DNA of 49,736 bases from NCBI GenBank assembly GCA_019358935.1, contig JAHHIK010000062.1, positions 1 through 49,736 on the forward strand, given 5' to 3'. This document shows, piece by piece, positions 15,626 to 39,390 of the stretch. The position numbers and the translations under genes were made by a program. Source of the stretch: Tolypothrix carrinoi HA7290-LM1 (lineage in GTDB: Bacteria > Cyanobacteriota > Cyanobacteriia > Cyanobacteriales > Nostocaceae). The notes beneath the pieces are model-generated. The model searched no databases and was not told where the DNA came from. It saw nothing but the letters and a program-made list of their open reading frames with translations. How positions within the stretch are numbered: position 1 is the first letter of the stretch; each line of letters starts with the position of its first letter.

Positions 15626-15640
15626 TTGTACACCTATTCC

Positions 15641-17184: not shown

Positions 17185-18102
17185 ATGGTTTTTGGCAACT
17201 GCATTTCAAAGCAACGCAATTCTCAAGTCACACCGCAGCAGCTAGAAAAAAACTTGCAGTTTTCTGTCGAAGATGCGGTTTTCTGGGTGGATACAGACGC
17301 ACGGTTTCTATTTATCAATGATGGGGCTTGTAGCTTAACTGGGTATTCCCGTGAGCAATTACTCTCCATGACTATGCACGACATATACCCGAACCTTTCA
17401 GCAAAAGTTTGGACAGAGTATTGGAGAACAATTAGGCAGCAAGGTTCTTTCACCTTTGAATCTGTGTGTCGGACTCAGGAAGGTTGGAGCTTTCTGGTAG
17501 AAAACATTGTTATCTATCCTCTTCCTTATCTGGAACACGTTGGCAAGGAGTATGGCTGTATTTTTGTTCGCAATATCAACAAAAGTAGGCAGTTAGACGT
17601 AAGTCTAAAGACAACCATTGAAGAGCTAGAATGCAGAGTCCAACAGCTTACTGCTAAATTGGAAGAAGTGAAAGAGCAATCTTGCCGTGAGATTGTAGAA
17701 ACTCGCCAGACCTTGGCACAAGAAGCAGTCCCGTATTCGTTCTGGCCATCGATTTCTCATCTGAATCAAGTCTTCGACTTCATCGAAGCCAATTATGGTC
17801 AACAAATTACTGTGTATAATGTAGCCCAGGCAGTTGGTTACTCTACTGCTTACTTGAGCAATCTGGTGAAGTCCAAAACTGGACGGACTATACATAGTTG
17901 GATTGTTGATCGCCGGATGGCAGAAGCGCGATCCTTGCTTCTAAAAACTGACCAAGCCGTGAATAAAATTGCTGCGGCAGTGGGCTATCCAGATGCAGGT
18001 CATTTCACCCGCCAGTTTCGCCAGCTCTACAAAGTAGCTCCAAAAGTGTGGAGAAATATACATTGCAGCCAGAGCGGCATTCAGCAAGACGGAATAAATT
18101 AA
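17185..18102 (+). CDS. PAS + AraC-family transcriptional regulator
   Basis: PAS (NDGACSLTGYSREQLLSMTMHDI), coiled coil, AraC double HTH (VAQAVGYS..YLS; IAAAVGY.D..HF.RQFR). Confidence 0.88.
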   Translation: MVFGNCISKQRNSQVTPQQLEKNLQFSVEDAVFWVDTDARFLFINDGACSLTGYSREQLLSMTMHDIYPNLSAKVWTEYWRTIRQQGSFTFESVCRTQEGWSFLVENIVIYPLPYLEHVGKEYGCIFVRNINKSRQLDVSLKTTIEELECRVQQLTAKLEEVKEQSCREIVETRQTLAQEAVPYSFWPSISHLNQVFDFIEANYGQQITVYNVAQAVGYSTAYLSNLVKSKTGRTIHSWIVDRRMAEARSLLLKTDQAVNKIAAAVGYPDAGHFTRQFRQLYKVAPKVWRNIHCSQSGIQQDGIN

Positions 18103-18490: not shown

Positions 18491-20314
18491 ATGTTTAAAG
18501 AAGTGCTGGACGTTGTACGTAGCTACACAAAAACTTTCTGCCGTTCTCTACCATTTTTGTGGACAGCAGCACCAAGAGAAACAATCTTGATGATCGCTGG
18601 TGTGTTGTTACAGGGAATTGTTCCCGCGCTGAGCGTCTGGATTACCAAGCAAGTGGTAGATGCAGTGGCAATAGCTTTAAACCAAGGGAAAGAAATTAGC
18701 TCAGTACTCCTCGCTAGCTTGGTAGCTGCATGGGTTGGGGCTTTACTACTAGAGGTTCTCCTGCGACCTTGGATGTCAGCAATTCAGGGAAATTTGGGTG
18801 AAAAGCTAACAGCTCACATCAACTTGCTTTTGATGCGTAAAGTTGACACTTTTCCCGACTTGAACCGTTTTGAAGACCAAAAGTTTTATGACGAGCTACG
18901 GATTCTCCAGGAACAAGTAAACTACCAGCCAATGAATTTTATTGGAAATTTGGCTCAGGGAGGCAGCAGTTTGTTCACTTTGGTAACTATGGTAGTGCTG
19001 CTATTCCCACTTGGGTTTTGGATTCCGTTTGTGATTATTATTACAACCCTACCCCAGATATATGTTTCCTTCCAGTATGAAATGATCATTTGGGGAGCCA
19101 TGTATGAGAAAAGTCCAGAATCTCGGCGGATGCAGTACTGCTCTTCAGTAATGCTTACTGATACCTACGCTAAGGAAGTGCGCTTGTTTAAGCTTGGTCC
19201 GTTGTTTATTAGTCGATATGTCAAAGAATTTCAGTCTTTGCATCAAACTATGCGCCACTTGCGGGGGAAACAAGCTTTTTGGGCGGCGCGTTTGTCTGTG
19301 ATGAGTGCTTTGGGGAATGGCTTTGCCTTTTATTGGGTGGTGCAGCAGGCTTTTAGAGGGGAAATTAGCCCAGGAAGTGTACTCCTTTTTGTGCAATCAC
19401 TAGCTTACCTCCAGCAGAATCTAGAACAGTGTATCGCTGTCTCCTTAACTACCTTTGAGACTCTACTCTATATGCAGCAGTTTTTTGGTTTCTTGGAGAG
19501 CCAACCAATAATGCCTGTGTGCATTCCGGGTAAACCAGTACCTGTTCCCATGCGATCGGGTATCACTTTTGATAAAGTACACTTTTGCTATCCAGACAAT
19601 CGGTCTGCGGTTGTAGACGTTTCCTTTACCCTGGAACCAGGTGAAACAGTAGCCCTCGTAGGAGAAAATGGGGCAGGCAAGACCACCCTAGTAAAGCTAC
19701 TGACGCGGTTATATGACCCTACAGAGGGAGCAATTGTGATTGATGGTGTAGACCTAAGGGAATTAGACTTGGATGCATGGCGGCAAAATATTGCTGCGGT
19801 GTTTCAAGACTTTAGCCGCTATGCACTCACACTGGGAGAGAACATTGCTTTGGGAGACATTGCAGCGCTGAATGACTCAGAACGCCTCAGACGTGCAGTC
19901 CAAAAAGCTGGTATTGCGGAACTAGTCGAAAAGTTTCCGCAAGGAGATCTCACTCCTCTGGGCAAGCAGTTTGGCGGCACAGAACTGTCTGGAGGAGAGT
20001 GGCAAAAGTTAGCGATCGCCCGAGCTTTCATGCGAGAAGAAGCCCAACTACTCATTCTTGATGAGCCGACAGCTGCCCTTGACCCCCGGAGCGAGTATGA
20101 GGTCTACCGCCGCTTTGTTGAACTAGCTCAAGGTAAGACTACGCTTTTAATCACCCACCGACTGGCTTCTGTACGCATGGCTGACCGCATCTTAGTTTTG
20201 AAATCCGGGCGACTTATCGAAGAGGGCACCCACCAGGAACTTTTGCGACGTGGAGGTGAGTATGCCCAGCTTTGGAATATGCAAGCCCAGCAATATGGTG
20301 CTCAAATAATTTGA
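18491..20314 (+). CDS. ABC exporter, fused permease/ATPase (lasso-peptide D-type)
   Basis: About six TM helices, Walker A GENGAGKT, signature LSGGEWQK, Walker B LLILDE; directly upstream of the cyclase. Confidence 0.9.
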   Translation: MFKEVLDVVRSYTKTFCRSLPFLWTAAPRETILMIAGVLLQGIVPALSVWITKQVVDAVAIALNQGKEISSVLLASLVAAWVGALLLEVLLRPWMSAIQGNLGEKLTAHINLLLMRKVDTFPDLNRFEDQKFYDELRILQEQVNYQPMNFIGNLAQGGSSLFTLVTMVVLLFPLGFWIPFVIIITTLPQIYVSFQYEMIIWGAMYEKSPESRRMQYCSSVMLTDTYAKEVRLFKLGPLFISRYVKEFQSLHQTMRHLRGKQAFWAARLSVMSALGNGFAFYWVVQQAFRGEISPGSVLLFVQSLAYLQQNLEQCIAVSLTTFETLLYMQQFFGFLESQPIMPVCIPGKPVPVPMRSGITFDKVHFCYPDNRSAVVDVSFTLEPGETVALVGENGAGKTTLVKLLTRLYDPTEGAIVIDGVDLRELDLDAWRQNIAAVFQDFSRYALTLGENIALGDIAALNDSERLRRAVQKAGIAELVEKFPQGDLTPLGKQFGGTELSGGEWQKLAIARAFMREEAQLLILDEPTAALDPRSEYEVYRRFVELAQGKTTLLITHRLASVRMADRILVLKSGRLIEEGTHQELLRRGGEYAQLWNMQAQQYGAQII

Positions 20315-20528: not shown

Positions 20529-22427
20529 ATGAAACGTTGGTTTTGTGGCTTATCATCAGCAATTGATAGTTCTGAAGCAAATCTTCCTAAACCCCTGGAT
20601 GGAGAAATGCTTTGGCAAGGAGTAAATCCCTTTTGGGTATGTGGAAATTGGGGAAAACAGCAAATTATTACGCTTTTTGAAGGTCCTGTCCGGTTGGCTA
20701 TAGTTGGTACTTGCCTAGAACCTTATGAGAGTTTGGTTGAATTGTTCCACAACGCTGTTAGAAGTCACGATTACAGCCGACTGATGAGATTACCAGGGAG
20801 CTATAACCTAATTGTGCAAGAAGAGGCTGACACTTATGTATTTACAGATATAGCTGGTCTTAGACCTGCGTTTTATGCAGAATATGGATCTTGTATTGCT
20901 TACTCCTCCTTGGGTGTCCCTTTACAACAATTGATCAAGGCAGAAGTAGATCCGTGCTGGCTTGCTAATTCTTTAATAGGTTTTAGAGCACCAAACTTAG
21001 TACAAAATCGCTCTCCTTTTCGCAATATACAGGCTGTTCCACCTGGTCACTATTTACAAATAACTTCCGGCAAACCGACGTGTAAGCGTTATTGGAATGC
21101 ACCGCAGGAATACAGTAGCTTCTCTGAGGCGGCTGAACAGTTGCGTGAGCAGCTACTAACTGCTGTCGAAGGTAGAGTTCGCTTATACGGCAATGTAACT
21201 AGCGACTTGAGTGGTGGTTTTGATTCAACCAGTTTGGCTCTAATAGCAGCAAAGAGCCTAGGGACGCAGGGTCATAACTTACATACAATAACCATTAAAG
21301 GCACTTCCTCTACTGAATCTGAAGACGTTAGATGGGCGAAGCACGCAGCTAGTCTTTACCCAAACATTGAATCTGTGATGATTGAGAGTCACGAGTATCC
21401 TGCGGAGTTGAGTGACCTGGAGTCAATCCCCCTGACAGATGCACCAGATCCAGTCGTATTTTCTCTAGGTTTAATTAGCTACTCGATGGGAGTTGTCAAG
21501 TCGAAAGGATCGAAACTTCATATGAGTGGGGAGGGTGGAGATCCAGTTCTTGCATCACATCCTTCCTATTTAGCAGATTTACTAAGACGTGCACAGGTAG
21601 GAGTATTTCTCCAGCACACTTATGGGTTGTCCCGAGTCAACAACTTGTCGCCAATCGCCTTAATGAGTAGTGCTGTAAGACTCAGTATTACTTCATATCG
21701 TCAGTGGCTACTTCAACAAGCTAAAAAAATTTTGACTGGACAATCGCATCAGCCGCTTAGAAGCAAGGAATCTATAAGTGCAGTCATAGGATGGCATTAT
21801 GCTTTGAATCCTGCTGCATGGTATACAAAAAGTTTTGTGGATTTAGTTGTAGCACAGCTACAGAGGTGGGCAACAGTTGCAACTCCTCTTACCGACTCTC
21901 CTGGGGAACATAGTTCTATAGATTTGATACAAAGGACTGGATTCACCAGCTTAGTTCAGCAGCAGGTAGCTGAAACTTATGATGTCAATTTAGAATTTCC
22001 CTATTTTGATTCGTTAGTAATTGATGCCTGTTTTAGTGCAAAGCCAGAGGAGCGGACAACTCCATTTGCATATAAACCGCTTCTCTCTAGAGCACTTGAG
22101 CGCGATTTACCGAAGAGTATTTTTACACGGACTAGCAAAGGTGATTACACAGGGGGTGAATTTGTCGGACTCCAACAAAATCTGCCGATAATCAATGAAG
22201 TTTTTCAGACCTCTTTCTTAGCTGATATGGGTCTGATTGATATCAGAGAACTTCGTAATTACATGGAACAGCTTAGTATGGGACTCGCTGCTTGTTCATT
22301 CCATTTCAATCAAACGCTGGCAATTGAGCTTTGGTTGCGCCGCGTGGCAGATGCTAGGAATAGTTTCTGGGAGCATTCGACTTTTGCAAATGTACCGCCA
22401 GAGGGGAATTTACAGACAGCATTCTAG
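20529..22427 (+). CDS. Lasso-peptide cyclase 1 (asparagine-synthetase-like, C protein)
   Basis: SDLSGGFDST ATP-binding motif, SGEGGD, PYFD, KPLL, R.SKGDY; no N-terminal Cys. Start MKRWFCG set by alignment with 24617. Confidence 0.9.
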   Translation: MKRWFCGLSSAIDSSEANLPKPLDGEMLWQGVNPFWVCGNWGKQQIITLFEGPVRLAIVGTCLEPYESLVELFHNAVRSHDYSRLMRLPGSYNLIVQEEADTYVFTDIAGLRPAFYAEYGSCIAYSSLGVPLQQLIKAEVDPCWLANSLIGFRAPNLVQNRSPFRNIQAVPPGHYLQITSGKPTCKRYWNAPQEYSSFSEAAEQLREQLLTAVEGRVRLYGNVTSDLSGGFDSTSLALIAAKSLGTQGHNLHTITIKGTSSTESEDVRWAKHAASLYPNIESVMIESHEYPAELSDLESIPLTDAPDPVVFSLGLISYSMGVVKSKGSKLHMSGEGGDPVLASHPSYLADLLRRAQVGVFLQHTYGLSRVNNLSPIALMSSAVRLSITSYRQWLLQQAKKILTGQSHQPLRSKESISAVIGWHYALNPAAWYTKSFVDLVVAQLQRWATVATPLTDSPGEHSSIDLIQRTGFTSLVQQQVAETYDVNLEFPYFDSLVIDACFSAKPEERTTPFAYKPLLSRALERDLPKSIFTRTSKGDYTGGEFVGLQQNLPIINEVFQTSFLADMGLIDIRELRNYMEQLSMGLAACSFHFNQTLAIELWLRRVADARNSFWEHSTFANVPPEGNLQTAF

Positions 22428-22575
22428 TGAAAACAGATGACGAAAGCTCCCGATGGAGGGCTAAGTGTCTGGAAGCTTGCATGTGAGAATTTTCAGGCGC
22501 AACACTTAGCTTTCACACATTAATGCGTTTTAAGCCACTTCAACTGAAGTTTTAGGAACAAAAGGAGAAAATAAC

Positions 22576-22845
22576 ATGGAACAAATTTGCATTCCACCGC
22601 ACGTTTCTACAACCTTTTTTAAGGATACTGCTGTAATATTAGATGCGCGAACAAACGTCTACCACGCATTAAATAATACTGCTGCCGATTTTTGGAAATA
22701 CCTAATGCAAAATGGTTCGTTCGAGAGTGCGCTCAATGAGGTGTTGGAATTGTATGACTATTCTTCAGATCTGATTAGAGAAGATATGGAGGATCTTGTT
22801 CGCTCCCTTCTTCATGCTGGACTACTTAAGAGGGTGCAAAGTTAA
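22576..22845 (+). CDS. RiPP recognition element (PqqD-like, lasso B1)
   Basis: 89 aa; AVILD....YHALN.TA..FW..L and D...LV..L..AGLL; AGGAG Shine-Dalgarno site. Confidence 0.88.
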   Translation: MEQICIPPHVSTTFFKDTAVILDARTNVYHALNNTAADFWKYLMQNGSFESALNEVLELYDYSSDLIREDMEDLVRSLLHAGLLKRVQS

Positions 22846-22927
22846 CTATAACTCAATCGAAAAATACAATGCCACCCTAACAAGATGTTGGCAACCGACC
22901 TTCTCATTATCAAACTGGAGAAATATC

Positions 22928-23347
22928 ATGAACACTGAGATGACGCTACAAACAATCAGTTTTAAGCTAACTTTGATAGAACGTTTGAAGGGTATATTTG
23001 CTGTAATCATTGCTTATATAGCTTTACGTTGTCTATCACTTTCAATGATCTGTAAAATTGTCGGTGTAGTAAAGCGTCTCTGCTCGCGTGAGATAGACGT
23101 TGAAGAAGCAGATATCGCGTGGGCGGCAGTGCGTCAGTCCAGCTTTTTCTTTTTAGGAAGGGTAGCCTGCCTAGAGTTATCATTGGCATTTGTTCTTTTT
23201 GCTCTCACTAAGGGTCTATCGGCAACGTGCTGTGTAGGTGTGGCAAATGAGCCATTTCGAGCACATTCATGGGTTGAGCTTAGTGGAAAACCCTTCCGTG
23301 AGCCTGACTATGTAGAACAGGATTTTAGTAAGTTGTTTGCAATCTAA
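22928..23347 (+). CDS. Lasso-peptide leader peptidase (transglutaminase-like, B2)
   Basis: ACLELSLA (Cys) and GV...PFRAHSWVE (His/Glu). Start chosen at MNTEM. Confidence 0.88.
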   Translation: MNTEMTLQTISFKLTLIERLKGIFAVIIAYIALRCLSLSMICKIVGVVKRLCSREIDVEEADIAWAAVRQSSFFFLGRVACLELSLAFVLFALTKGLSATCCVGVANEPFRAHSWVELSGKPFREPDYVEQDFSKLFAI

Positions 23348-23535
23348 CTAGGTAAAGTAAATTAAACATAATACTTACTACCTTAAAAACCCAATCTCTT
23401 TAAGAAACTGGGTTTCTCGATTTTTCGGTTTGTTTAAAGTTTATATACTTGACAAGAAGTGTAAGTTTGTTATGCTGCTCCTCTATGCATACATATGAAA
23501 CTTAACTCTTCAATTTGCTAAATAACAACACAATT

Positions 23536-23564
23536 ATGAGCTGTTGATTACCTCAACAGCCCAT
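23536..23564 (-). terminator. Stem-loop downstream of precursor A1
   Basis: Minus strand ATGGGCTGTTGA-ggtaa-TCAACAGCTCAT, 12-bp stem with one G-U pair. Confidence 0.55.
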
Positions 23565-23604
23565 GATTACAGTGCTACATTCTCCTAATCAAAAAGTTGA
23601 TAGA

Positions 23605-23730
23605 TTAGAAGAAAACTCTACCTCTATTGAAAATTATCTCACGTCGATTCAGAACATCGGCTGCCAATGTCGCCTTAATTGCATCACCCATTTGAATTAG
23701 TTGGGGTTTAGAGTATTGCTTCTTAGTCAT
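23605..23730 (-). CDS. Lasso-peptide precursor A1: MTKKQYSKPQLIQMGDAIKATL-AADVLNRREIIFNRGRVFF
   Basis: Translated by hand, 41 aa; leader YxxPxLxxxG and Thr at -2; Glu at core position 9; GAGGA Shine-Dalgarno site; leader nearly identical to A2. Confidence 0.88.
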   Translation of the reverse strand: MTKKQYSKPQLIQMGDAIKATLAADVLNRREIIFNRGRVFF

Positions 23731-23789
23731 GGCTTTATCCTCGAAAAGATTTACGTTTGTTTGTAGTTGAATTCGTCAACCACACTTTT

Positions 23790-23818
23790 AATTTAAGAGG
23801 TTATTAACTCAAATTCAA
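23790..23818 (-). promoter_or_regulatory. Putative sigma-70 promoter of precursor A1
   Basis: TTGAAT-17 nt-TAAATT on the minus strand; the TAAATT and a following small hairpin are retained upstream of A2. Confidence 0.4.
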
Positions 23819-24007
23819 TGGAAAATCTTGCGGTAGGATGGGATATTTCTTTGGTCTTGCTGAGTATTTTTGAAACTGATTATAAGTACTATGCAAAGAT
23901 TAATTAGATGTAGTTAAACGGTGCTACAAGCTGAAATTAATTACCCTATTTCTGCCAGAGACACTCATTGCAAAGCAGCCTGACAACAGGAATTTGACGG
24001 TGCTTAT

Positions 24008-24267
24008 TCAAGCCGCAGTTACATGACCCAACTCCTCTGGAGCGAGATAGGGATGAACCACCTGCCCATCTTTGCACCAGATGACTCTATGGGTACAACG
24101 GGCAACCTCTGGCTCATGAGTGACTACAACTACCGTCATACCACTAGCGTTTAACTGGGTGAAGATATGGAGGATTTCTCGAGTAGTATGAGAGTCCAAT
24201 GCGCCAGTGGGTTCGTCTGCAAGCAGGAGAACAGGGCGATTGACAATAGCACGGGCGATCGCCACTC
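24008..24267 (-). pseudogene. Duplicated 3' fragment of the efflux ABC ATPase
   Basis: Highly similar to the last ~85 aa of 27187-27894; no Walker A. Confidence 0.85.
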
Positions 24268-24298
24268 AGGTTGTTAGCAGTCTAACAATAATGTGAGA

Positions 24299-24403
24299 CG
24301 GCTGATTAAAGAGGGCATCCACCAGGAACTTTTGCGACGCAGAGGAGAGTATGCCACGTTTTGGAATATGCAAGCCCAGCAATATGGTGCTCATATAACT
24401 TGA
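24299..24403 (+). pseudogene. Duplicated 3' fragment of the lasso ABC exporter
   Basis: RLIKEGIHQELLRRRGEYATFWNMQAQQYGAHIT* matches 20210-20314. Confidence 0.85.
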
Positions 24404-24616: not shown

Positions 24617-26452
24617 ATGAAACGTTGGTTTTGTGGCTTCTCATCAGTAATTGATAGTTCTCTAGCAACCCTTCCTCAACCGCTTGATGGAAAAATGCTC
24701 TGGGAGGGGGCGAATTCCTTTTGGGTGTGCGGAAATTGGGCAAAACAGCAAATTATCACGCTTTTTGAAGGTCCTGTTAAGCTGGGTATAGTTGGTACTT
24801 GCCTAGAACCTTATGAGAGTTTGGTGGAATTGTTCCAGAACGCTGTCAAAAAGCACGACTACAACCGACTGATGCGCTTGCCTGGTAGCTATAACCTGAT
24901 TGTTCAAAACGAGGCTGATACATATGTCTTTGTAGATGTGGCTGGTCTTAGACCAGTGTTCTATACAGAGTATAATTCTTGTGTTGTTTACTCCTCCTTA
25001 GGTGTTTCTTTACAACAGTTGATCAAGGCAGAAGTAGATCCGTGCTGGCTTGCTAATTATTTAGTAGGTCTTACAGCACCAAACTTAGTACAAAATCGCT
25101 CTCCTTTTTGCAATATACAAGCTGTTCCCCCTGGTCACTATTTGCAAATATCTTTAGATAAAGCAACCTGTAAGCGTTATTGGCATGGACCACAGGAATA
25201 CTGTAGCTTTTCTGAAGCCGCTGAACAGTTGCGTGAACAGCTATTAACTGCTGTCGAAGGTAGAGTTCGCTTATACGGCAATGTAACTAGCGACTTGAGT
25301 GGTGGTTTTGATTCAACCAGTTTGGCTCTAATAGCAGCAAAGGACTTAGCGAAGCAGGGGCAGAAGTTACATACAATAACCTTGAAGACCGTTTCAGCTA
25401 CTGAGTCTGAAGATGTTAAATGGGCACAGCATGCAGCTAGTCTTTACCCAAACATTGCACCTGTGATGATTGAGAATCATGAGCTTCCTGGGGAGTATAG
25501 TAATTTGGAGTCAATTCCTCTAACAGATGCACCAGAACTGGTCCTCACTTGTATAGGCCAAATCAGCAAGTTAATGGAAATTATAAGGTTGAAAGAATCT
25601 CAACTTCATATGAGTGGAAACGGTGGAGATGCAGTTCTTTTAGCCCCTCCTTCATATTTGGCAGACCTGTTAAGACGGGCACAGATAGGAACCTTTGTCC
25701 AACAAAGTTATGGGTGGTCTCGAATCAGCCATTCGTCGGTAGTAGACTTAATGAGTAGTGCCGTAGAACTGAGTCTAACTTCATATCATCAGTGGTTACT
25801 TCAACAATATAAAAAGCTTGTGGCTGGACAACTATCGTCCCAGCAGCTGATGAACCAGTTTATGGGATGGGATTTTCCTCCGGATGTCAGTAGTTGGTAT
25901 ACAAAAAAATCTGTGGATTTAGTTGTAGCAGATTTACAGACGTGGGCAACAGTCGCAACACCTTTTGCCGACTCTCCTGGGCAACATGAATCTATAGCGG
26001 TGATCCAATTGAACGGAATCGGTGCCAGAGTGCAGCAGCAGATAGCTGAAACTTATGATGTCAATTTAGAATTTCCCTATTTTGATTCTTTGGTAATTGA
26101 TGCCTGTCTCTGTGCAAGACCGGAGGAGCGCACAAATCCATTTAAATACAAACCGCTCCTCTCTAAAGCGCTGCACCGCGATTTGCCGCAGAGTATTTTT
26201 ACACGCACGACTAAAGGTAATTATACAACTGATGAGTTTATTGGCTTCCGGCAAAATCTGGCTGTCATCAACGAATTATTCCAGACTTCCCTCTTGGCTG
26301 ACATGGACTTGATTGATATAAGGGAGTTCCATGCTGCCATGAAGCAGTTTAGTATGGGAATTGCTGCTATTTCGCCAAATTTCTCTAAGACACTGGCAAT
26401 TGAACTCTGGCTACGCCGTGTGGTGGATGCTAGTAATAGTTTCTGGATATGA
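24617..26452 (+). CDS. Lasso-peptide cyclase 2
   Basis: Full-length paralog of 20529-22427; SDLSGGFDST, SGNGGD, R.TKGNY. Confidence 0.9.
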   Translation: MKRWFCGFSSVIDSSLATLPQPLDGKMLWEGANSFWVCGNWAKQQIITLFEGPVKLGIVGTCLEPYESLVELFQNAVKKHDYNRLMRLPGSYNLIVQNEADTYVFVDVAGLRPVFYTEYNSCVVYSSLGVSLQQLIKAEVDPCWLANYLVGLTAPNLVQNRSPFCNIQAVPPGHYLQISLDKATCKRYWHGPQEYCSFSEAAEQLREQLLTAVEGRVRLYGNVTSDLSGGFDSTSLALIAAKDLAKQGQKLHTITLKTVSATESEDVKWAQHAASLYPNIAPVMIENHELPGEYSNLESIPLTDAPELVLTCIGQISKLMEIIRLKESQLHMSGNGGDAVLLAPPSYLADLLRRAQIGTFVQQSYGWSRISHSSVVDLMSSAVELSLTSYHQWLLQQYKKLVAGQLSSQQLMNQFMGWDFPPDVSSWYTKKSVDLVVADLQTWATVATPFADSPGQHESIAVIQLNGIGARVQQQIAETYDVNLEFPYFDSLVIDACLCARPEERTNPFKYKPLLSKALHRDLPQSIFTRTTKGNYTTDEFIGFRQNLAVINELFQTSLLADMDLIDIREFHAAMKQFSMGIAAISPNFSKTLAIELWLRRVVDASNSFWI

Positions 26453-26681
26453 AGGGATTGGTATAGATAGCTTTTACTTCTTTTTTTACGAAACTGCTGT
26501 ACTATTAGACTCTAGAAAAAATGTTTACTATACTTTGAATGATAGCGCCGTTGAGTTTTGGAAATTCCTAGTGCAGAACGGTTCATTTGAGTGTGTGCTC
26601 AAAGAAGTGTTGGAATTATATGAAGATTCTTCAGATGTTATCAGCAAAGAGCAGTTGTATTCACAGCCACTTAATGCTTAA
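26427..26681 (+). pseudogene. Degenerate second RRE (B1) copy
   Basis: ETAVLLDSRKNVYYTLNDSAVEFWKFLVQNGSFE aligns with 22576-22845; native N-terminus and last helix are missing; no B2 copy follows. Confidence 0.75.
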
Positions 26682-26718
26682 GCAGAAGTTTCCCAGTCAA
26701 GGGGAAACTTCTGCTTAA
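26678..26718. terminator. 17-bp perfect inverted repeat between convergent units
   Basis: TTAAGCAGAAGTTTCCC-agtcaag-GGGAAACTTCTGCTTAA. Confidence 0.7.
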
Positions 26719-26788
26719 TTAAACTGTATTGCTCTAATTAAGGAAAGCAGTTTAGATCTTATCGGCTGGAAGATCCTTTTACTTACTA

Positions 26789-26911
26789 CTAAGGTCGGAT
26801 AAATGTACGCGCTCCAAACAAGTCGCGGTACCGCCCAAATATCCCCAATGTTGCCTTAATCGCATTACCAACCTCAATTAATTCGGGTTTAGAGTATTGC
26901 TTCTTAGTCAT
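26789..26911 (-). CDS. Lasso-peptide precursor A2: MTKKQYSKPELIEVGNAIKATL-GIFGRYRDLFGARTFIRP
   Basis: Translated by hand, 40 aa; YxxPxLxxxG leader, Thr at -2, core Gly1 and Asp8; AAGGA Shine-Dalgarno site; stacked stops TAG TAG TAA. Confidence 0.92.
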   Translation of the reverse strand: MTKKQYSKPELIEVGNAIKATLGIFGRYRDLFGARTFIRP

Positions 26912-27186
26912 GTTTTTATCCTTCAAAAGTTTAGGTTTATTTGTAGTTGAAATGCTCAGCTACACTTCTAAATTTAAGAGATTATAAACTCAAAAACATT
27001 GGAAAATATTGCGCTATGATAGGATATTTCTTCGGTCTTGCTAAGTAGTCTTGAAACTGATGATAAGTACTCTGCCAAAAAATAATTAGATCTAGTTGGA
27101 CGGCGCTGCAAGCTAACACTAATTACGCCATTTCTGCCACTCATTGCAAGGTAGTTTAACAATAACGTGAGTTCGAGGATGCTTAG

Positions 27187-27894
27187 TTAAACCGCAGTTA
27201 CATTACCCAACTCCTCTGGAGCAAGATAGGGATGAACCACCTGCCCATCCTTAAACCAGATGACGCGCTGGGTACAACGGGCAACCTCTGATTCATGAGT
27301 GACCATAACCACTGTCATACCACTAGCATTTAACTGAGTGAAGATATTGAGGATTTCTTTTGTGGTATGAGAGTCCAATGCGCCAGTAGGTTCGTCTGCT
27401 AGCAGGAGAACTGGATTATTGACAATAGCACGAGCGATCGCCACTCGTTGTTGCTGTCCACCCGATAGCTGATTGGGTTTATTGTGCAAGCGTTTTTCCA
27501 GTCCCACTCGCATCAACGCCTCAGTTGCCCAATCTCGCCGTTCGTCTAGGGGAACGCCCGCATAGACCATCGGTAGCATGACATTCTCCAGAGCACTCAA
27601 CTGGGGCAATAGGTGAAACTGTTGAAAGACAAAACCCAGTTTCAAATTACGGATGTGAGCCAAATCTTTGTCACCCAGATGGGCAACATTCACCCCATCC
27701 AAGTAGTAGCTTCCAGAAGAGGGGTGATCTAAGCAGCCAATGACGTTCATCATCGTGGACTTACCCGAGCCAGAAGCTCCCATAATGGCGCAATATTCTC
27801 CTGCTTCTACAGTCAAATTGACACCAGCAAGAGCATGAACTGTGGTTTCTCCAGAACCATAAACTTTTGTGATGTTTTTTAAGTGAATGCTCAT
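27187..27894 (-). CDS. ABC ATPase, MacB/LolD-like
   Basis: [34 protein letters not shown]. Confidence 0.92.
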
Positions 27895-27896
27895 GG

Positions 27897-29102
27897 TTAT
27901 GCACCTCTCAACGCAGCAATAGGATCAAGCCGAGCTGCTTGTCGCGCCGGTGCAACACCGAAAATTAAACCAATGCTACCGGAAACGCCTGCTGCTAACA
28001 AGATTGCCCCCACGGGTACTGTCGGTTTCAAAGGGGTCAAGATACCAACAATAAGTGCACCACTGACGCCAATGCCTGTGCCAATTAAGCCTCCTGCTAC
28101 TGAGAGGATAATTGCCTCAATCAAAAACTGCGTGAGGATTGCCTGTTGAGTTGCTCCTATTGCCTTCCGTAGTCCAATTTCCTGTGTACGCTCTGTTACA
28201 GACACCAACATAATGTTCATGATGCCAATACCACCAACTAATAAGGAGATACCTGCTATTGATGCCAAGACTAAGCTCAAAGCTCCCGTCACCTGACTGA
28301 CTAAGTCTTGAACCGACTTGTTTGCGGCAACCATAAAGTCTTTCTTGCCATGTCTGCGCGTGAGAATGTTGGTGGTTTGGAAAGCTGCTGCCCGGACGCT
28401 AGCTTTGTCCTTGGCAGAAAGTTCTAGGTAGTCAATGGGAATGCCATTGGGCGATCGCCTTCCTGCTAACTGACCTGCCATAGTAGTAATAGGCACGTAG
28501 GCTATCTCATCGGGATTATTACCCATGAAAGCTCCTTTGGCTTGCATCACCCCAACCACTTGAAAACTTAAGTTATTCATCTGCACTGACTGACCAAGAG
28601 GATTTTCGCTACCAAAGAGTTTGCGTGCGACTGCTGGTCCTAAGATGACAACTTGGGCATTTTGCTGTTGCTCAATGCGGTCAAAAAAGCGCCCCTGGCG
28701 AACACGTAGGTTTCGCACATAAAGAATTCCCGATGTTGTACCTGTTACATTTACTTTACTTATGCGTCCCTGACGGGATAATTGCAGGTTGCTACTAATC
28801 TGCGGGGCGGCTTCCTGGACGGCAGGTGCCTGCGTTGCTATTGCCTCAGCATCTGCCAAAACCAGTTGTGCAACCTCAGTGTTCACTCCCTCCGCATTCT
28901 CCCCTCCAGGAAAAACAGAGAGTTGATTTGGTCCAAAGGACTCCAACTTTTGCTGAGTAAACTGCTGTGCGCCTTGCCCGATAGCAACCATCGCAATCAC
29001 GGAGGCATTGCCAATGATAATACCGAGCATGGTGAGTGTACTACGGAGTTTGTTGGCAGTGAGCGTTTTAACTGCCATATTTGTACTTTCAAGTAGGTTC
29101 AT
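27897..29102 (-). CDS. ABC permease, MacB/FtsX-like
   Basis: LRSTLTMLGIIIG; GGIGIMNIMLVSVTERTQEIGLRKAIGA; PA..AARLDPI.ALR. Confidence 0.92.
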   Translation of the reverse strand: MNLLESTNMAVKTLTANKLRSTLTMLGIIIGNASVIAMVAIGQGAQQFTQQKLESFGPNQLSVFPGGENAEGVNTEVAQLVLADAEAIATQAPAVQEAAPQISSNLQLSRQGRISKVNVTGTTSGILYVRNLRVRQGRFFDRIEQQQNAQVVILGPAVARKLFGSENPLGQSVQMNNLSFQVVGVMQAKGAFMGNNPDEIAYVPITTMAGQLAGRRSPNGIPIDYLELSAKDKASVRAAAFQTTNILTRRHGKKDFMVAANKSVQDLVSQVTGALSLVLASIAGISLLVGGIGIMNIMLVSVTERTQEIGLRKAIGATQQAILTQFLIEAIILSVAGGLIGTGIGVSGALIVGILTPLKPTVPVGAILLAAGVSGSIGLIFGVAPARQAARLDPIAALRGA

Positions 29103-29335
29103 GGTTTTGGTTTATGGGGATTCTTACATCTTGCACTTGGGAAAATAAATGTCAAAGTCATTACATATTATTTGACTCCGTTCTCGTCACGGGACTGTAA
29201 GTCCCGCCGCTTATAGCCGAAGTCCATTTTAAGGGACTGAAACTGGAACTAATTCATGAGTATATTTAAACACTATTTAATGCAAATATTAGTGGTTTAC
29301 TCGTAATGGTGCAAGATATTAGGATTGAAACAAAA

Positions 29336-30679
29336 CTAAAATCCAACAGTATCTACGCCCTCAATTTTTTCGTTGCTTGGAGGAGATATAAACACGCGAT
29401 CGCCCTTTTTCAGACCTTCTAACACTTGAACTTGGTCACCACTAGCTGCGCTCACCTTAATAGGTTGGAGCCGTGCCGTAGTTTTTTCATCAGCGACATA
29501 CACCCCTGTTTGACCATTAGGCTGAGTCACAACCGCAGCCAGGGGAATCACCAAGGCATTCTTAATTGGCTCACCCAGGAATGTGAGACTCATGTTCATC
29601 CCTGACTTGAGCTTTGCCTGCCCGGTAGAGAGTGCCACTTTCACCCGAAAGGAGGTAATATTGTTTTCTTGCACAGCCCTAGGTGCAATTAGGCTAACCT
29701 GTCCCTTAAAAGTTTCGTTAGAATAGGTGTCTGCTTGAATATTTACAGTCTGACCTGAATGAATTTTAGAAATGGTGGCTTCAGGAATTTTGGCTTCAAT
29801 TTCTAAGCCACTGGAGAGTTCAGCAATGGAGGTGGACGTTGCTCCTTCATTGGAAGAGGCTGATGTGGTAGGTGTGACGAAATCTCCCTCTTGAGCAAAG
29901 CGGCGGGTGATGATGCCTGCAAAAGGCGCACGAATAACCGTATTGTTGAATTGGCTTTGATAAAAAGCAAGTTGAGCTTTTGCCTGAGCCACTTCGGCTT
30001 CTGCTTGAGCAATTTCCTCAGGGCGCAGTCCGTTGCGGGCTTTTTTCAAACTCTCTCCCTGTTCCTTGAGTCGCGCTAGCTCTGCTTCCAAATTTGCCTT
30101 AGCTTCCCGTTGTTTAGCAATAAACTCTCCAAAGGCGTTCCGGGAAATTGCACCCTCTTGAGCTGGGATTTGATTACGTTTGAGTTCTTCTGTTGCACGG
30201 TTTAGCCTTGCTTGGGCTGCTGCTACAGATGCTGAGGCAGAAGCAACTCTGGCTTTTGCCTCAGCAATTTCTTCAAGACGAGTTCCAGAGCGCTTTAGTT
30301 CTAAGTCAGCCACAGCTTTTTCCAGTGATGCTAGATACTGATTGACCTGCGCCTGGACTTTCTCGCTACTCATACGGGCAATGATTTGTCCTTTGGTAAC
30401 GCGATCGCCCTCAGTCACATATAGTTTGGCAATGCGTCCAGAATCTTCTGGACTTAGGTTAATTTTTCGCACAGCTTGCACCACCCCGTTGGCTTGGATT
30501 TGTACCACCCAATCTTTAGTTTGTACCAATACAGTTTGGTTAGCTAGGTCTTGCTGAGAGGAAGTGTCTTCGGTCTTCAGGTAAACTAAAGTTGTGATGG
30601 TTCCTAAAGCTCCGATGAGCATGATTGCGGGTATCCAGAGATTTAGCTTCTTGACCCGACTCAACGGTAAAATTTGCAT
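29336..30679 (-). CDS. Efflux membrane-fusion protein (MacA/HlyD family)
   Basis: N-terminal TM, lipoyl half-motifs (V.EGD.V.KGQ; IRAPFAG), long coiled coil. Confidence 0.9.
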   Translation of the reverse strand: MQILPLSRVKKLNLWIPAIMLIGALGTITTLVYLKTEDTSSQQDLANQTVLVQTKDWVVQIQANGVVQAVRKINLSPEDSGRIAKLYVTEGDRVTKGQIIARMSSEKVQAQVNQYLASLEKAVADLELKRSGTRLEEIAEAKARVASASASVAAAQARLNRATEELKRNQIPAQEGAISRNAFGEFIAKQREAKANLEAELARLKEQGESLKKARNGLRPEEIAQAEAEVAQAKAQLAFYQSQFNNTVIRAPFAGIITRRFAQEGDFVTPTTSASSNEGATSTSIAELSSGLEIEAKIPEATISKIHSGQTVNIQADTYSNETFKGQVSLIAPRAVQENNITSFRVKVALSTGQAKLKSGMNMSLTFLGEPIKNALVIPLAAVVTQPNGQTGVYVADEKTTARLQPIKVSAASGDQVQVLEGLKKGDRVFISPPSNEKIEGVDTVGF

Positions 30680-30922: not shown

Positions 30923-32203
30923 GTGAACCGTCTTCTGCAACTTAAAACCCATCCTTTTCGTTTACTGCTCTACTTGGAATGGATTTTGTTGATAATTACA
31001 GTTCTGGGTGAGCTACCGTGGGAAGACATTCCCTACCTAGAAACACTGCTGGGAGAGTCTTATAATAGACCAAAACTGCTTCCGTACTCTTGGCTGCTAA
31101 ATATATTTTGCATTGTAGGATTCGGGTTAATGGGGTTGCGGTTGCCAAGGGGTACAACCGCAAGTAAATGGCTTTACACGGCGCTGGAATTGGGAATAAT
31201 CTGGCTCGTAAATGCCCTGGGAAGCTGGCGTATATCTTTTCTGTCTCCTTATCTAATTGTCGTCATCCGCAGTTGCCTAATTTTTAAACCAACGGGACGA
31301 CTGTTAGCTACTGGATTGATCTTTATTTCTTTCTTGCTATCACTGGTAATTTCGGTAAAGGATCTTCCAGCGATTCAACTGGAACTGACACAACCCAAAC
31401 CTGTAACGCTCAATGAAATTAGGATTTGGTTTATTATTAGTAGTATCAACACAGCATTTTTGTTTGGATTGGTGTTGGTATTTGTTTTAATGCTGGTGAA
31501 TGCGTTGCTGGCAGAACGTCAAAGTCGGCAAAAACTGACACTCGCCCACGACCAGTTACGCGAATATGCCTTACGGATAGAAGACCAGGCGACTTTACAG
31601 GAGCGTAACCGAATTGCCCGCGAAATTCATGATTCCTTGGGTCATGCAATGACGGCTCAAAGTATTCAGTTAGAAAATGCGTTGTTATTTTGTCACTCCA
31701 ACCCAGATAAAACCCAAGCATTTTTGACCGAAGCCAAGCAATTGGTAGCAACAGCTCTCAAAGAGATTCGTCAATCAGTCTCTAGGCTCCGGTCTGACTC
31801 ATTGCAAGGGAGAACTCTAGAATCAGCCCTCGCTACCCTGATTCAAGACTTTTACAAAAGGACGAACATCACCCCAGACAGCAAAATCAGCCTGACTTAT
31901 CCGCTGACGGCTGAAGTTATGACTGCTGTCTATCGCATTGTTCAAGAAGCCTTAACGAATATCTGCAAACACAGTGATGCAACACAAGTTACCCTTCAGT
32001 TGCAAACGATACATAGACATTTACATCTGCTGATTTCTGATAATGGTAGAGGCTTCAACCCAGAACAAAACACAACGGGTTTTGGACTTCAGGGAATGCA
32101 AGAAAGAACGGTAGCCCTGGGAGGTCATTTCAAGCTAGCAAGTGAAATAGGAAAGGGTTGCCGTGTCACTGTTGAGATTCCACTTGTGAAATTTCTGCCA
32201 TGA
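30923..32203 (+). CDS. Membrane sensor histidine kinase (HisKA_3, NarX/DesK type)
   Basis: Multiple TMs; [34 protein letters not shown]. Confidence 0.92.
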
Positions 32204-32868
32204 TTCGCTTGTTGCTAGTAGACGACCAAATTATCATTCGCCAAGGACTCAAGAGCTTACTAGAGTCTAAGCCAGACTTACAGGTGGTTGGAGATGCCGA
32301 AAATGGTCAACTGGCACTGGATCTGCTTGAGTCCCTACAGGGAACACCGCTACAACCGGATGTGGTGTTGCTGGATGTGCGGATGCCCGTAATGGATGGT
32401 GTAGCAGCGACCCAGCAAATTTACCAACGCTTTCCTCTGACGCAGGTTCTGATTTTGACCACCTTTGATGACGATGAATATGTTTCGCAGGCAATGCGCT
32501 TTGGGGCGAAGGGGTACTTACTCAAAGATACTCCGTCAGAGGACTTGGCGATGGCTATTCGGGCAGTTTACCAAGGTTACACTTATCTTGGACCCGGACT
32601 GTTTGAAAAAGCACTTCCACACCAAAGCACTGCTGCTCCCGTTAAGCCAGCCATTCCTCCTGAATTAGCGGATCTGTCGCCTAGGGAGTGGGAGGTATTG
32701 CGGTTAATTGCTTCTGGAGCGAGCAATCGTGAAATTGCACAGGCACTTTACATCTCAGAAAGAACTGTAAAAAATCATGTTACCAGTATTTTGAGTAGGT
32801 TAGGTTTACGCGATCGCACCCAAGCAGCGCTTTTTGCCAGTTCGTTCCTTCCCCTGCTGGATGCTTAG
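32200..32868 (+). CDS. NarL/LuxR-family response regulator
   Basis: LLVDD, DVRMP, GYLLKD; HTH LSPRE.EVL.LIA.G.SN.EIA. Confidence 0.93.
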
Positions 32869-33383: not shown

Positions 33384-34243
33384 ATGGAAGGAAACTACAC
33401 TCCTACAGTTGTCACTTTGGGATTGGCTTTCTTGACAGGGAAAGTCAACGGTTGCCCTGATGCTGGGTCGATACCTGGGGCGGTTGGGAATTCCCGTACT
33501 GTTCGTTGATGCTGACCCGCAATCATCGCTCACTAGCTTTTTGGGTGTAAAAGTACAACCCTCGACCCCCACTTTGCTGGAGGTAATCACCCAGCCGGAA
33601 GAAAAAAGCAAGATTGTTAATGCGATCGCCCCAGTACCAAATGTCCAACTTGACAACCGCACTATCAGTAACACCAACTTGTTTTTAATCCCAAGAGACG
33701 ATGGACTTGAGAACGCGAATTACAAACTAGCATCCAGCGGCAGCGCGTTTATTTATCCTGAGAAATCGCCTACGGAACATTGCCAACAACTTTGGCGTAA
33801 TAATTGTAGATCCACCGCCTGAGCGATCGCACCTAGCTCAAACTTCCCTTGGTGCTGGTGATAAGTGGGTTATCCCAGCAGAAGCCAACGTCAAGGGAGT
33901 GCAGTCACTCGTGCGGACTTTGGAATTGGTCAAAGAATTTCAGCCAGCTTTACCTTATGGCGAATTAATGGGAGTGGTTCCCTTTCGTGCCAAGTGGACG
34001 GGTGTAAATCCAACCAAAGCCACTAAAAGCAGTATCGAAGCAATGGGCGAAATAGTGGGAAAAGATTTGATGTTACCCCACCTGCTCGAATCCGATGTAT
34101 ATAAAAATGCTATCAACCAACGGGTATCACCAGCAGACTTAGGACAACCGGGACTGGAATATCCAATTGCGGTATTGGCGCAGAAGCTAAAACCAGCATT
34201 AGCCGAACAGTACGCAAAACTAATCCCCTACGTAACAGTGTAA
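33384..34243 (+). pseudogene. parA: ParA-family ATPase with two frameshifts
   Basis: QGKST out of frame with ATG 33384; VDADPQ.SLT; second shift near 33750 into ILRNRL...IIVDPPP...IPAE.NVKG, continuing into ORF 33899-34243. Confidence 0.8.
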
Positions 34244-34265
34244 TTTATAGTAGCAGGAGCAACCA

Positions 34266-34709
34266 ATGAGCCTATTAGATGAAATTCGCGCTCGTTCTAC
34301 TCAACCTACCGTGGAGCCACGTATTGATGTATTGCAGCAAGAGAAGATTGATGACACGTTGAATGCGATTGCCCCTTCAGCACCTCAGGATAAGTTCGCA
34401 CTTAGAACAACTGAGATATCGGAACTTAAACGCCTAGAAGAATTACTCGCCAACTTTCCAGAAATTGCTGCGAGAATACCCGTGCGGTTAGAAACTCCAA
34501 TTAAAGACGAACTCGACGAATTGTGCAACCGAGAAAAAGTCACAATCGAAACATTACTCGAAGCATTTTACGTAACTTGTAAGGATAAAGAATCAGTGAT
34601 GCGGCAAGTTATTCTAGAAGCAAAAAAGCGGTTGAAAAGTCGGAAGGAGGCGGGTAATATTCGCTCCAGTCTTACCAAACTTAATAACTTAACTAAAAAT
34701 ATAAAGTAG
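34266..34709 (+). CDS. Hypothetical protein, probable ParA partner (DNA-binding)
   Basis: AGGAG Shine-Dalgarno site; directly after parA; RHH-like segment IPVRLETPIKDELDELC. Confidence 0.65.
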   Translation: MSLLDEIRARSTQPTVEPRIDVLQQEKIDDTLNAIAPSAPQDKFALRTTEISELKRLEELLANFPEIAARIPVRLETPIKDELDELCNREKVTIETLLEAFYVTCKDKESVMRQVILEAKKRLKSRKEAGNIRSSLTKLNNLTKNIK

Positions 34710-34805
34710 TAACGCGCGATCGCGCCCGTCACAACAACGGCTGTGCCGACGTGTAATCGTAAGAAAAGCGTGACGAAAAACTCAAGTTGAAAGAGGAGAA
34801 AAGCA

Positions 34806-34916
34806 ATGAATACCTTGCAGACTGTCAAAGAAGTTTCCGTCGGAGAAATCACCAAAGCTATCTTGGTAGATTTACAAAAACTCTCCTCTTATTCTGGAGA
34901 ACCAATGGCAGCGTAG
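34806..34916 (+). CDS. Possible 36-aa small protein or gene remnant (MNTLQTVKEVSVGEITKAILVDLQKLSSYSGEPMAA)
   Basis: GAGGAG Shine-Dalgarno site upstream; hairpin GTCACGC-ttgtcg-GCGTGAC directly downstream. Confidence 0.3.
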   Translation: MNTLQTVKEVSVGEITKAILVDLQKLSSYSGEPMAA

Positions 34917-35028
34917 AGGGTAGTCACGCTTGTCGGCGTGACCCCTAAATTATTGGCGAGGAGTGGTTTTTTGGCTTTTTTCTCTGATAAAGCTGCTTGA
35001 CGGGAGCAAAGGAGGCAAGGGCATTGCT

Positions 35029-35916
35029 CTACAAATACAAAGCGCTGCTATCATCGGGCAATGCGTGCAAGTATTTACTGGTAATCGCGATATTGCTGTG
35101 TCCCAAAGTCTTCTGAATCAAAGCAAGGTTCGTACCCTTTTGAATGCTGTGGGTGGCATGAGCATGGCGCAACCAGTGACAAGAAGCTTTCTCGTTGACT
35201 CCAGCACGGAGTGCAGCAGCTTTGACAATCGGGTGAATGTTTTGTCTGTGCAAGTGTCCTTTGGTTTTGTGGCTTACAAACACTGGGGCATCCGGTGGGG
35301 CGAAACCTCTCAAGCTTAGAAGAAGCTGCCAAAGGTCTAATGGCAGTCGGATAGAACGCCGTTTGTTCCCCTTGCCCAGCACTGTTATCTGCCCGGAGTC
35401 ACCGCGTGGCATCAAATCTTTCCACTTCAGCCCACACAGTTCGCTAACCCGCAATCCTCCTTTATAAAGTAAAGTTAAGATGATGTAATCGCGGGTGTTT
35501 GTAGCCCCATCAATTAGCAGATCCACTTCTTCAAAGGACAAATAGCGCTCGGTCAGATTGTCGTCTGATCTCTTGATTTTGAGGGCGCTGCCAACATTGA
35601 ATTCTATGTACTCCATCTTGGCTGCGAACGAAAACAGCGACTTGATAGCTGACAGGTGATTTTCTTGGGTGAGGGTCGAATTTCCCTGAGTTTCCAACTG
35701 CATCCAGTAATCGTGCAAATCTTCAAGCGTTACCTCGGGTAAGGATTTACCTACAAATCCCAAAAACTTAGTGATGATGCGTTGGTAAGCTGACTGGGTT
35801 AAAGTCGCTTTGCCGTGCAGCCACATTTGAATTAGTTTTTGTTGAGCGTCAACAGGTGCTAGGTGTCGCAACTGCTTGCGATCGCGGATGTCCTGAACCA
35901 GGGCAAGAGGGGCCAT
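35029..35916 (-). CDS. Tyrosine recombinase (Xer/resolvase-like)
   Basis: GLRVSEL, GKGNK.R, HWLRH, LGH, Y catalytic motifs; start set at MAPLALV. Confidence 0.92.
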   Translation of the reverse strand: MAPLALVQDIRDRKQLRHLAPVDAQQKLIQMWLHGKATLTQSAYQRIITKFLGFVGKSLPEVTLEDLHDYWMQLETQGNSTLTQENHLSAIKSLFSFAAKMEYIEFNVGSALKIKRSDDNLTERYLSFEEVDLLIDGATNTRDYIILTLLYKGGLRVSELCGLKWKDLMPRGDSGQITVLGKGNKRRSIRLPLDLWQLLLSLRGFAPPDAPVFVSHKTKGHLHRQNIHPIVKAAALRAGVNEKASCHWLRHAHATHSIQKGTNLALIQKTLGHSNIAITSKYLHALPDDSSALYL

Positions 35917-37116
35917 TGTCAAAAAGCGAGTTAACAGACAAAAGTATTCTTCTGTCTGATTATCCCCTGAAAAGGGCGTCTGCACTGCACAAAACGTGGA
36001 ATATACACAGTGGTTACTAAATGCTGTACTGGGGTGAGCCTGCACTTAAGTCCCCGCGAACAGGCGATCGTCACCCACGTCCATCAAAACTCGTTTGTTT
36101 TACGACTGTCAAACATCGTTATCCGAGCCGATTTTTTGCCCTTTTTGTAAAAATTGCCCCCTACGGCAGATTACGGAGCGCTGCGGCTACAGGCTGTTCA
36201 TTGACACCGCCACCCTTGGCAGGAACAGAGAGCTATTTATTGTTAACCCCCCAAGCAACTCTACTGAACGCATCATCTCAACTCAAGATGTGGGGGAAGT
36301 CGTTGATTGGTTAAGGAAGCAGGATTTATTTGAGTGAGCTTTAAGCGACTCCTGCCTCTCTTTGCCGAAGCGCTGCTGTACACCCCGGTGTAACGCCGAA
36401 GCTGGCTCACGCTCACGGGAGAACTTCATATAGAAAAAATATGGCTTGCTGTGTTTTTAAATCCACCTAGGCTACCCATTCGACTATCTCAAATCCTGTG
36501 GTAGGAGCAAGCAAAAAATAGTCATACAAAAGATTCTAGAAGCATAAAACTTGAGATTAGAAGCATAACTGAAGTATTTAGTATCGGGTTTTTCTTGGGC
36601 ATTGTTCTTATAAAATCTTCTGAATGCTTACTGTACGCATTATTTTACTTTTCCAGTCTGATCAAATCTTTTTTAATCTTGGAATTTATTTAAATAAAAA
36701 TACTCAATTGCGCCAAGCGTGATAGAAAGCCGGGACTGTTGAAAAGTATAACGATTGAGTTTTAGTACCTCGACCAGTTAGAGGGATTGCCGTTTATCCC
36801 TGTGGTTTTAGGACTTTGGACGCTTGTTTACAAACGTAGATGTCTAGCATTGACTACATGCACTCTTTGCAATGGAGCGCGATTTCTTTGAGCGGTAAAT
36901 ACGAAATAAAAATTATCAGAAGTGAATGTTCTTTACTAAAACTAACGGACGGTGGCATGAGCCGTGGGAGTCATTTCTAATAAAAGCAATAATTGCAACC
37001 ATCTCCATCGCACCATAATGAAGGAGCCACCAAGATAGCTGGGTAGTAGGTGGGACAACCATTACTACCACTGCTTCAATGTTCTGGTTGTATTTCTGGA
37101 CAACGCTTGATACTTC

Positions 37117-39377: not shown

Positions 39378-39390
39378 CCAGCATCCCCTT

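Follow-up and report, generated by a model that had tools for sequence, protein, structure and literature searches.

Propeptin, a lasso peptide of Microbispora sp. SNA-115, competitively inhibits prolyl endopeptidase with a Ki of 0.7 uM; loss of its C-terminal Ser-Pro gives a Ki of 1.5 uM and lowers an antibacterial activity that is already weak (40 ug per disk) more than 100-fold (excerpt of the review PMC13514767). Trilenodin, from Paenibacillus, inhibits B. subtilis and K. pneumoniae, with extra ABC genes giving the producer immunity, and cochonodin, from Streptococcus suis, is its relative (PMC11664905). In lariatin, Arg7 is required for production, and Tyr6, Gly11 and a cation at position 17 favour activity (PMC4960549). 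The high charge of lariocidin is proposed to allow transporter-independent uptake (PMC11451635, PMC13352647).

Our search of open papers found no characterised cyanobacterial lasso peptide, and searches with core strings of the family described below returned no paper. The string 'cyanobacteri' occurs 0 times in the reviews examined, the cyanobacterial products in the excerpts of PMC8600333 and PMC9576775 are just predicted or of other classes, and the solved lasso structures of the LassoPred set come from three phyla, none of them cyanobacterial. The window analysed here, 49,736 nucleotides of Tolypothrix carrinoi HA7290-LM1 (contig JAHHIK010000062.1), holds two predicted lasso precursors, A1 and A2 (Table 1). 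A2 is the subject of this analysis.

The A2 precursor and its described relatives

The A2 reading frame translates into a 22-residue leader, MTKKQYSKPELIEVGNAIKATL, and an 18-residue core, GIFGRYRDLFGARTFIRP. The original prediction described a core of this length with Gly1, a single acid at Asp8, four Arg, no Cys and the bulky tail residues R13, F15 and R17, all of which the translation bears out; the Arg are at positions 5, 7, 13 and 17 and the net charge is +3. Its assignment to class II, as a lasso precursor whose predicted ring joins Gly1 and Asp8, is also well supported. Asp8 is the only acceptor candidate, within the class II range of core positions 7-9, the absence of Cys agrees with a class without disulfides (PMC7549694), and the leader has the YxxP motif and Thr at -2 of class II leaders. 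The cluster provides a cyclase, an RRE, a peptidase and an ABC exporter, and Asp8 recurs as acceptor in 12 of 61 family cores. The computed monoisotopic mass of cyclised A2 is 2123.154 Da.

The gene is not a chance reading frame, as a strict lasso-precursor pattern matches just two ORFs in the whole 7.96-Mb genome, A2 and A1. Their leaders are identical at 18 of 22 residues (dN/dS 0.22, 22 codons), and an RBS-like, purine-rich tract (GAAGGA) precedes the A2 ATG, ending 7 nt short of it. The Y, P and T of the leader motif are invariant in 34/34 family leaders, and the invariant Thr(-2) places the cleavage site; identical leaders of relatives in the LassoPred table are cut at the matching position. 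Scans of sigma-70 promoters (11 against 9.0 +/- 3.0) and terminators (4 against 3.2 +/- 2.2) did not rise above shuffled sequence. The Pfam search assigned no family to A2, and the NCBIfam lasso-leader model NF033521 matched it weakly (14.6 bits, cut-off 19). With the NCBIfam cyanobacterial lasso precursor model NF033528 (cut-off 33), A2 gave no match at E<=10 and A1 gave 13.3 bits; judged from sequence, the A2 family is different from the cyanobacterial family of that model.

The closest likeness is to propeptin, which was met in an acceptor-motif search of LassoPred supplementary file 3 and has the same sequence in Table 1 of PMC12427821. From two residues before the acceptor to the C-terminus, propeptin (YRDLFGGHTFISP) and A2 (YRDLFGARTFIRP) are identical at 10 of 13 positions, and both have Gly1, no Cys, a 10-residue tail and a C-terminal Pro. 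With the Arg-Asp that is fixed in the family set aside, the remaining 8/11 matches have a chance of 2e-8 by composition or 2e-7 by position-specific frequencies, low enough to withstand some thousands of such comparisons. Several of the matched positions vary within the family (Tyr-2 is found in 2/60 cores, Thr+6 in 2/60 and Pro+10 in 0/42), so the A2 sequence is either an old one retained or the outcome of convergence. In favour of descent are a Bacillota 'firminodin' row, LP_13521, which has all 8 A2 ring residues with one Trp inserted, and P0153, a core matched by the cyanobacterial profile that also resembles the 'firminodin' rows.

The differences lie mainly in the ring. That of propeptin (Gly1-Asp9) has nine residues, among them Pro, Trp and one more Asp, whereas the predicted A2 ring has eight and contains Ile-Phe-Gly-Arg; the net charges are about -1 and +3. 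Propeptin and its listed kin actinokineosin are actinobacterial, whereas A2 is cyanobacterial. The cyclase searches matched no Microbispora-named protein, their nearest named non-cyanobacterial matches being actinobacterial at 24-32%. A2 thus has the flank and tail of the propeptin type, with a 10-residue tail ending in X-Pro, and a Gly1-Asp8 ring in place of the nine-residue one, for which reason we call it propeptin-like rather than a member. As far as the sequences go, it is a ring-contracted, cationic propeptin analogue.

The 'firminodin' family, one row of which fits every residue described for trilenodin in PMC11664905, shares with A2 Gly(-4), an aromatic residue (-2), Phe-Gly (+2,+3) and Arg (+5) around the acceptor. 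Unlike A2, it has 9-residue rings, mostly 23-residue cores and long hydrophobic tails, and its peptidase is fused to an ABC transporter, whereas B1, B2 and D of the A2 cluster are separate. Lariatin A, from Rhodococcus jostii, resembles A2 in its 18 residues, 8-residue ring and Gly1, Tyr6, Arg7, Gly11, Ile16 and Pro18, but has a Glu8 acceptor, Trp9 and Asn14, which A2 lacks. This 6/18 identity, with a chance of about 0.004 per comparison by hand estimate and weak after many comparisons, is no more than suggestive. Lariocidin and lassomycin have the high positive charge and 8-residue Asp ring of A2, but beyond these no common sequence motif, and a mechanism like theirs was rejected for A2 for that reason. 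By Pfam, the A2 cluster contains no second-ring peptidase, acetyltransferase or methyltransferase. Charge-driven uptake of A2, as proposed for lariocidin, would be analogy only, and keywimysin was set aside as kin, its aromatic and cationic likeness being merely loose.

Two modules and two cyclases

From left to right the cluster consists of a PAS-AraC regulator, exporter D, C1, B1, B2 and A1, followed by two transporter remnants, C2, an RRE remnant and A2, and finally by the MacAB-type efflux genes and the pair of sensor kinase and regulator. By annotation it is a complete lasso cluster that has one RRE/peptidase pair for two intact cyclases, the whole RRE and peptidase genes being in module 1 only.

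Table 1. Positions of cluster features in the window
Feature	Position	Strand	Details
PAS-AraC regulator	17185..18102	+	Pfam
ABC exporter D	18491..20314	+	607 aa; Pfam, NCBIfam
C1 lasso cyclase	20529..22427	+	632 aa; NF033561 350 bits, cut-off 300; clade precursors all Glu
B1 RRE	22576..22845	+	89 aa; sole whole copy in cluster; NF033530 E 2e-13, 50 bits, below cut-off 70
B2 leader peptidase	22928..23347	+	139 aa; sole copy in cluster; NF033537 67 bits, cut-off 33; PF13471
A1 precursor	23605..23730	-	19-aa core; predicted Ala1-Glu9 lasso; ORF translation
MacB-type ATPase gene, 3' remnant	24008..24265	-	left side of module junction
ABC exporter gene, 3' remnant	24308..24403	+	right side of module junction
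Conserved upstream element of C2	24422..24529	+	
C2 lasso cyclase	24617..26452	+	611 aa; predicted A2 partner; NF033561 353 bits, cut-off 300; SGGFDS at 228
RRE (B1) remnant	26481..26651	+	matches residues 14-70 of 89; no peptidase gene follows
Hairpin, 17-bp stem	26678..26718	.	likely terminator between converging C2/RRE-remnant and A2 genes
A2 precursor gene	26789..26911	-	40 aa; leader 26911-26846; core 26845-26792; predicted Gly1-Asp8 ring 26845-26822
Conserved ~108-bp upstream element of A2	26934..27041	-	common to C1, C2, A1, weakly D
MacAB-type efflux set	27187..30679	-	ATPase 27187-27894; permease 27897-29102; adaptor 29336-30679
HisKA_3 sensor kinase and LuxR-type response regulator	30923..32868	+	divergent from efflux set

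The ~108-bp upstream element is probably a co-regulated promoter region, to judge from its distribution. A profile built in part from four of its five matches finds just those five in the genome at E<=1, all inside the cluster (C1, C2, A1, A2 and weakly D), with none before the MacAB genes. The element recurs before cyclase or precursor genes at seven other loci (L021, L022, L026, L029, L030, L037 and L038). The arm adjoining the cluster, 33460-47660, is plasmid- or ICE-like, with a ParA-like fragment, a tyrosine integrase, an actin-like protein, a D5-type primase and a nucleotidyltransferase-HEPN pair. The stretch 128-16291 carries two-partner secretion, CHAT/TPR, CHASE2, DUF928, DUF1822 and sigma-factor genes, a PIN-domain gene and internal repeats. 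Another contig of the same genome (L035:2159-7000) has a second, unrelated lasso-type cluster with an RRE, a peptidase, a cyclase 22% identical to C2, two identical 70-aa precursors, a 161-aa ORF and an ABC transporter.

The two modules are 81-83% identical in DNA, and C1 and C2 are 73% identical (dS 0.46, dN/dS 0.36). We dropped in-situ tandem duplication as their origin on two grounds: the junction remnants and the corresponding intact copies have different best-matching relatives, and the divergence of two of the three remnants shows purifying selection. L037 is the best match (93%) of the ATPase remnant, and likewise of the exporter remnant together with the spacer downstream of it, while the intact ATPase and exporter copies best match L022 (94% and 90%). 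To their L022 counterparts C1, B1 and B2 are 87-88% identical and C2 73%. The dN/dS of the remnant divergence is 0.20 for the ATPase and 0.23 for the RRE; the 31-codon D remnant gives 1.14. The C2-A2 module thus appears, on these comparisons, to have been acquired from a sister cluster by recombination. A cassette of C2, RRE, probably the peptidase, and A2 would have recombined into the resident cluster, with redundant genes lost afterwards. The best DNA match of C2 itself to any locus is just 79-80%, too low to single out a donor. On such an origin C2 and A2 would be a pair, and with the RRE beside A2 truncated and the peptidase gene missing, A2 would need the module 1 copies. Misassembly is spoken against by contigs from a public sequencing run, possibly of the source sample, that span the module junction (21983-24389) and the RRE truncation with A2 (26059-27600) with 0 differences; a second run, with a small share, gave just fragments of relatives.

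Other loci show related arrangements. L031:3293-10900 is a second two-cyclase locus, its second module having a peptidase, while the cyclases P0003 and P0027 (77% and 68% identical to C2) and the precursor P0170, all with one and the same length of longest contig, hint at a third. L033:7848-8300 is a decayed cluster in which the exporter is intact and the last 85 cyclase codons and an RRE stub are left.

Decay of module 2, with A2 unexpressed or unmatured, seems unlikely to us. The truncated RRE, the lost peptidase and the two transporter remnants at the junction would fit it, as would one 60-codon window of C2 with a dN/dS of 1.15. Yet C2 is open over 611 codons and keeps all invariant columns of a 26-cyclase alignment, departing at two near-invariant ones, and its predicted structure (pLDDT 84.9) has an asparagine-synthetase-like fold that matches TsnB9 and beta-lactam and asparagine synthetases; no solved structure matches C2 by sequence. 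A2 has retained its leader and RBS-like tract as well as the upstream element and the hairpin, the losses are restricted to genes redundant with module 1, and L031 has likewise kept a second cyclase where no second RRE was found. That C1 closes both A1 and A2, with C2 spare, is slightly less likely still. The L022 orthologue of C1 (87% identical) is the sole cyclase of a 17.8-kb locus with Ala1-Glu9 and Gly1-Glu8 precursors, so that enzyme likely tolerates an 8-residue Gly1 ring, and 9- and 8-residue rings can lie behind one cyclase. The difficulty is the acceptor, which is Glu in A1 and Asp in A2. C1 belongs to a supported five-member clade (98/99) that is adjoined by Glu precursors exclusively, with C2 outside it, and C2 is under purifying selection. 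Most characterised cyclases accept Asp alone or Glu alone, dual tolerance being rare with two exceptions known (PMC12480086), and lariatin E8D was not produced (PMC4960549).

We therefore think it quite probable that C2, rather than C1, would close the A2 ring. All six one-cyclase loci with several precursors (L022, L023, L024, L028, L029 and L030) use a single acid type, and A2 and C2 each keep the upstream element. At 9 of the 10 cyclase columns that best separate Asp from Glu, C2 has the Asp-group residue; that separation is only just above what shuffling without regard to kinship gives (1.68 against a 95th percentile of 1.62). At columns separating 8- from 9-residue rings, likewise confounded by kinship, C2 mostly carries the 9-ring residue. 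Asp substrates lie beside both cyclases of L031, so acceptor choice is not the sole reason to keep two.

The cyanobacterial precursor family

Among 389 genomes of the family, 13 have a B2 relative at E<=1e-20, as do 8 among 401 genomes sampled across the order, counting the present genome, and the named loci belong to Nostocales-type cyanobacteria and Microseira. Cyclase/peptidase loci and a leader-only profile yielded 34 precursor genes with 31 distinct cores at 22 loci including this one, a count that left out eight duplicate stretches and the unrelated L035, with L001-L020 outside the scan. No precursor was found at the scanned loci L026, L033, L042, L050, L053 and L055.

All 31 cores have one acid at positions 7-10 with Arg directly before it, against an Arg share of 19.6% elsewhere in the ring. 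Another 30 cores came from a profile search, with Arg before the acid in 30/30, a count biased by that column being part of the profile; one further match escaped the core pattern. An exhaustive search, from which two long false matches were dropped, added 15 more, with Arg in ten, Lys in one and other residues in four. Strict invariance of this Arg was thus rejected, two of the exceptions, P0176 and P0179, themselves resembling A2, and the overall count is 71/76 family cores, whose kin are not independent. Counted by eye, the background is 0/48 rows in part of the LassoPred table and 5/62 characterised-peptide rows. The cyclase probably recognises this Arg, since lariatin production was lost with R7A but not with R7K (PMC4960549).

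The first 61 cores are otherwise diverse. Rings have 8 (19 cores), 9 (36) or 10 (6) residues, eight amino acids (G, A, R, S, W, L, H and I) occur in the first position, and the net charge runs from +1 to +10 with a median of +4. The 10-residue rings, beyond the usual 7-9, are predicted for L037:5633-5767, L038:9247-9384, P0136, P0140, P0161 and P0162, whose sole acceptor is Asp10. Precursors of L046-L049 have poly-Arg tails (up to seven consecutive Arg) and His/Gly-rich extensions; among them L047 (Glu8) and L048 and L049 (Asp8) have near-identical rings and form a natural pair for acceptor specificity. Two Cys in the tails of P0143 and P0171 are class IV-like.

LassoPred supplementary file 3, searched with leader terms, yielded 12 Cyanobacteriota rows, each identical to a precursor found here; the A2 and A1 cores were not found in it. 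These rows have the same leader as A2 and likewise Arg-rich cores, and carry no family, name or structure. The chemistry is that of a known lasso class, with sister precursors already catalogued, unnamed, in genome-mining tables.

Predicted product and activity

The putative pathway would begin with B1 binding the YxxP leader of A2, as leader likeness suggests, and B2 cutting after Thr-Leu. The cyclase would then adenylate Asp8 and bond this residue to the amine of Gly1, closing the ring around the tail, with Arg13 above the ring and Phe15-Arg17 below as predicted plugs, by analogy with trilenodin and cochonodin. That a Gly1-Asp8 lasso is made from A2 is, judged by lasso biochemistry, highly probable, with ring and threading both predicted. 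Leu at lariatin position 9 blocked production (PMC4960549), and the Leu9 of A2 counts against a product; propeptin too has Leu after its acceptor. Exporter D would secrete the lasso, the MacAB set would protect the producer, and A2 would inhibit neighbouring bacteria through its cationic-aromatic surface and C-terminal Arg-Pro; to these steps we attach somewhat better than even confidence. An antibacterial role for A2, by analogy, seems to us fairly probable in the same degree. Likeness to propeptin and the trilenodin family makes antimicrobial activity plausible on a better basis than the composition used in the original prediction, and nothing points specifically to the allelopathy against cyanobacteria that it also raised. 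The complete reading, a propeptin-like precursor of a predicted Gly1-Asp8 class II lasso, likely closed by C2 with the shared RRE/peptidase and likely exported as a cationic antibacterial, has in our view an even chance of holding throughout.

The lasso might instead act mainly as an inhibitor of prolyl oligopeptidase (S9A), as propeptin does in vitro, though this is improbable. Propeptin minus its last two residues still inhibits at the Ki given above (PMC13514767), A2 shares 9 of 11 residues with it from acceptor-2 to acceptor+8, and two PF02897 genes in the genome show that such enzymes are present in the lineage. However, the Pro and two Trp of the propeptin ring are missing from A2, whose ring is smaller and cationic, the only Pro of A2 is C-terminal, in the part dispensable for inhibition, and the propeptin tail is not kept across the wider family. 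The retained C-terminal X-Pro, the lack of a ring Pro and the shift of +4 charge units favour an antibacterial over a peptidase inhibitor. Still less probable, and by some way, is that A2 is a signal for the neighbouring sensor kinase and not a weapon. A sensor kinase does adjoin the cluster in L021, L022, L029, L030, L037 and L038, but the kinase-regulator pair here faces the efflux genes, which is the arrangement of peptide-resistance modules. The pair was not seen at other loci, whose cores are also cationic, and the closest characterised peptides are antibacterial.

A wider proposal, which we put forward tentatively and hold to be less probable than its contrary, is that propeptin and trilenodin belong to one cross-phylum lineage with an uncharacterised cyanobacterial branch, of which A2 would be the most conservative member. 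This branch would have radiated into strongly cationic lasso antibiotics, with cyclase-precursor cassettes exchanged among clusters, and A2 would be the first active cyanobacterial lasso antibiotic. If this is true, the branch covers net charges between +1 and +10, ring sizes of 8, 9 and 10, eight first residues and an Arg before the acceptor, and two 73%-identical cyclases with one RRE/peptidase and Glu9 and Asp8 substrates form a natural experiment on the choice of acceptor and ring size. A2 offers a first cyanobacterial candidate in which ring size and charge can be compared against the two known activities of propeptin. The cluster is a clean setting in which to see how cyclases tell Asp from Glu, and 8- from 9-residue rings, within one shared leader system, and across the family the varied first residues, 10-residue rings and poly-Arg tails suggest tolerant cyclases that may be useful in engineering.
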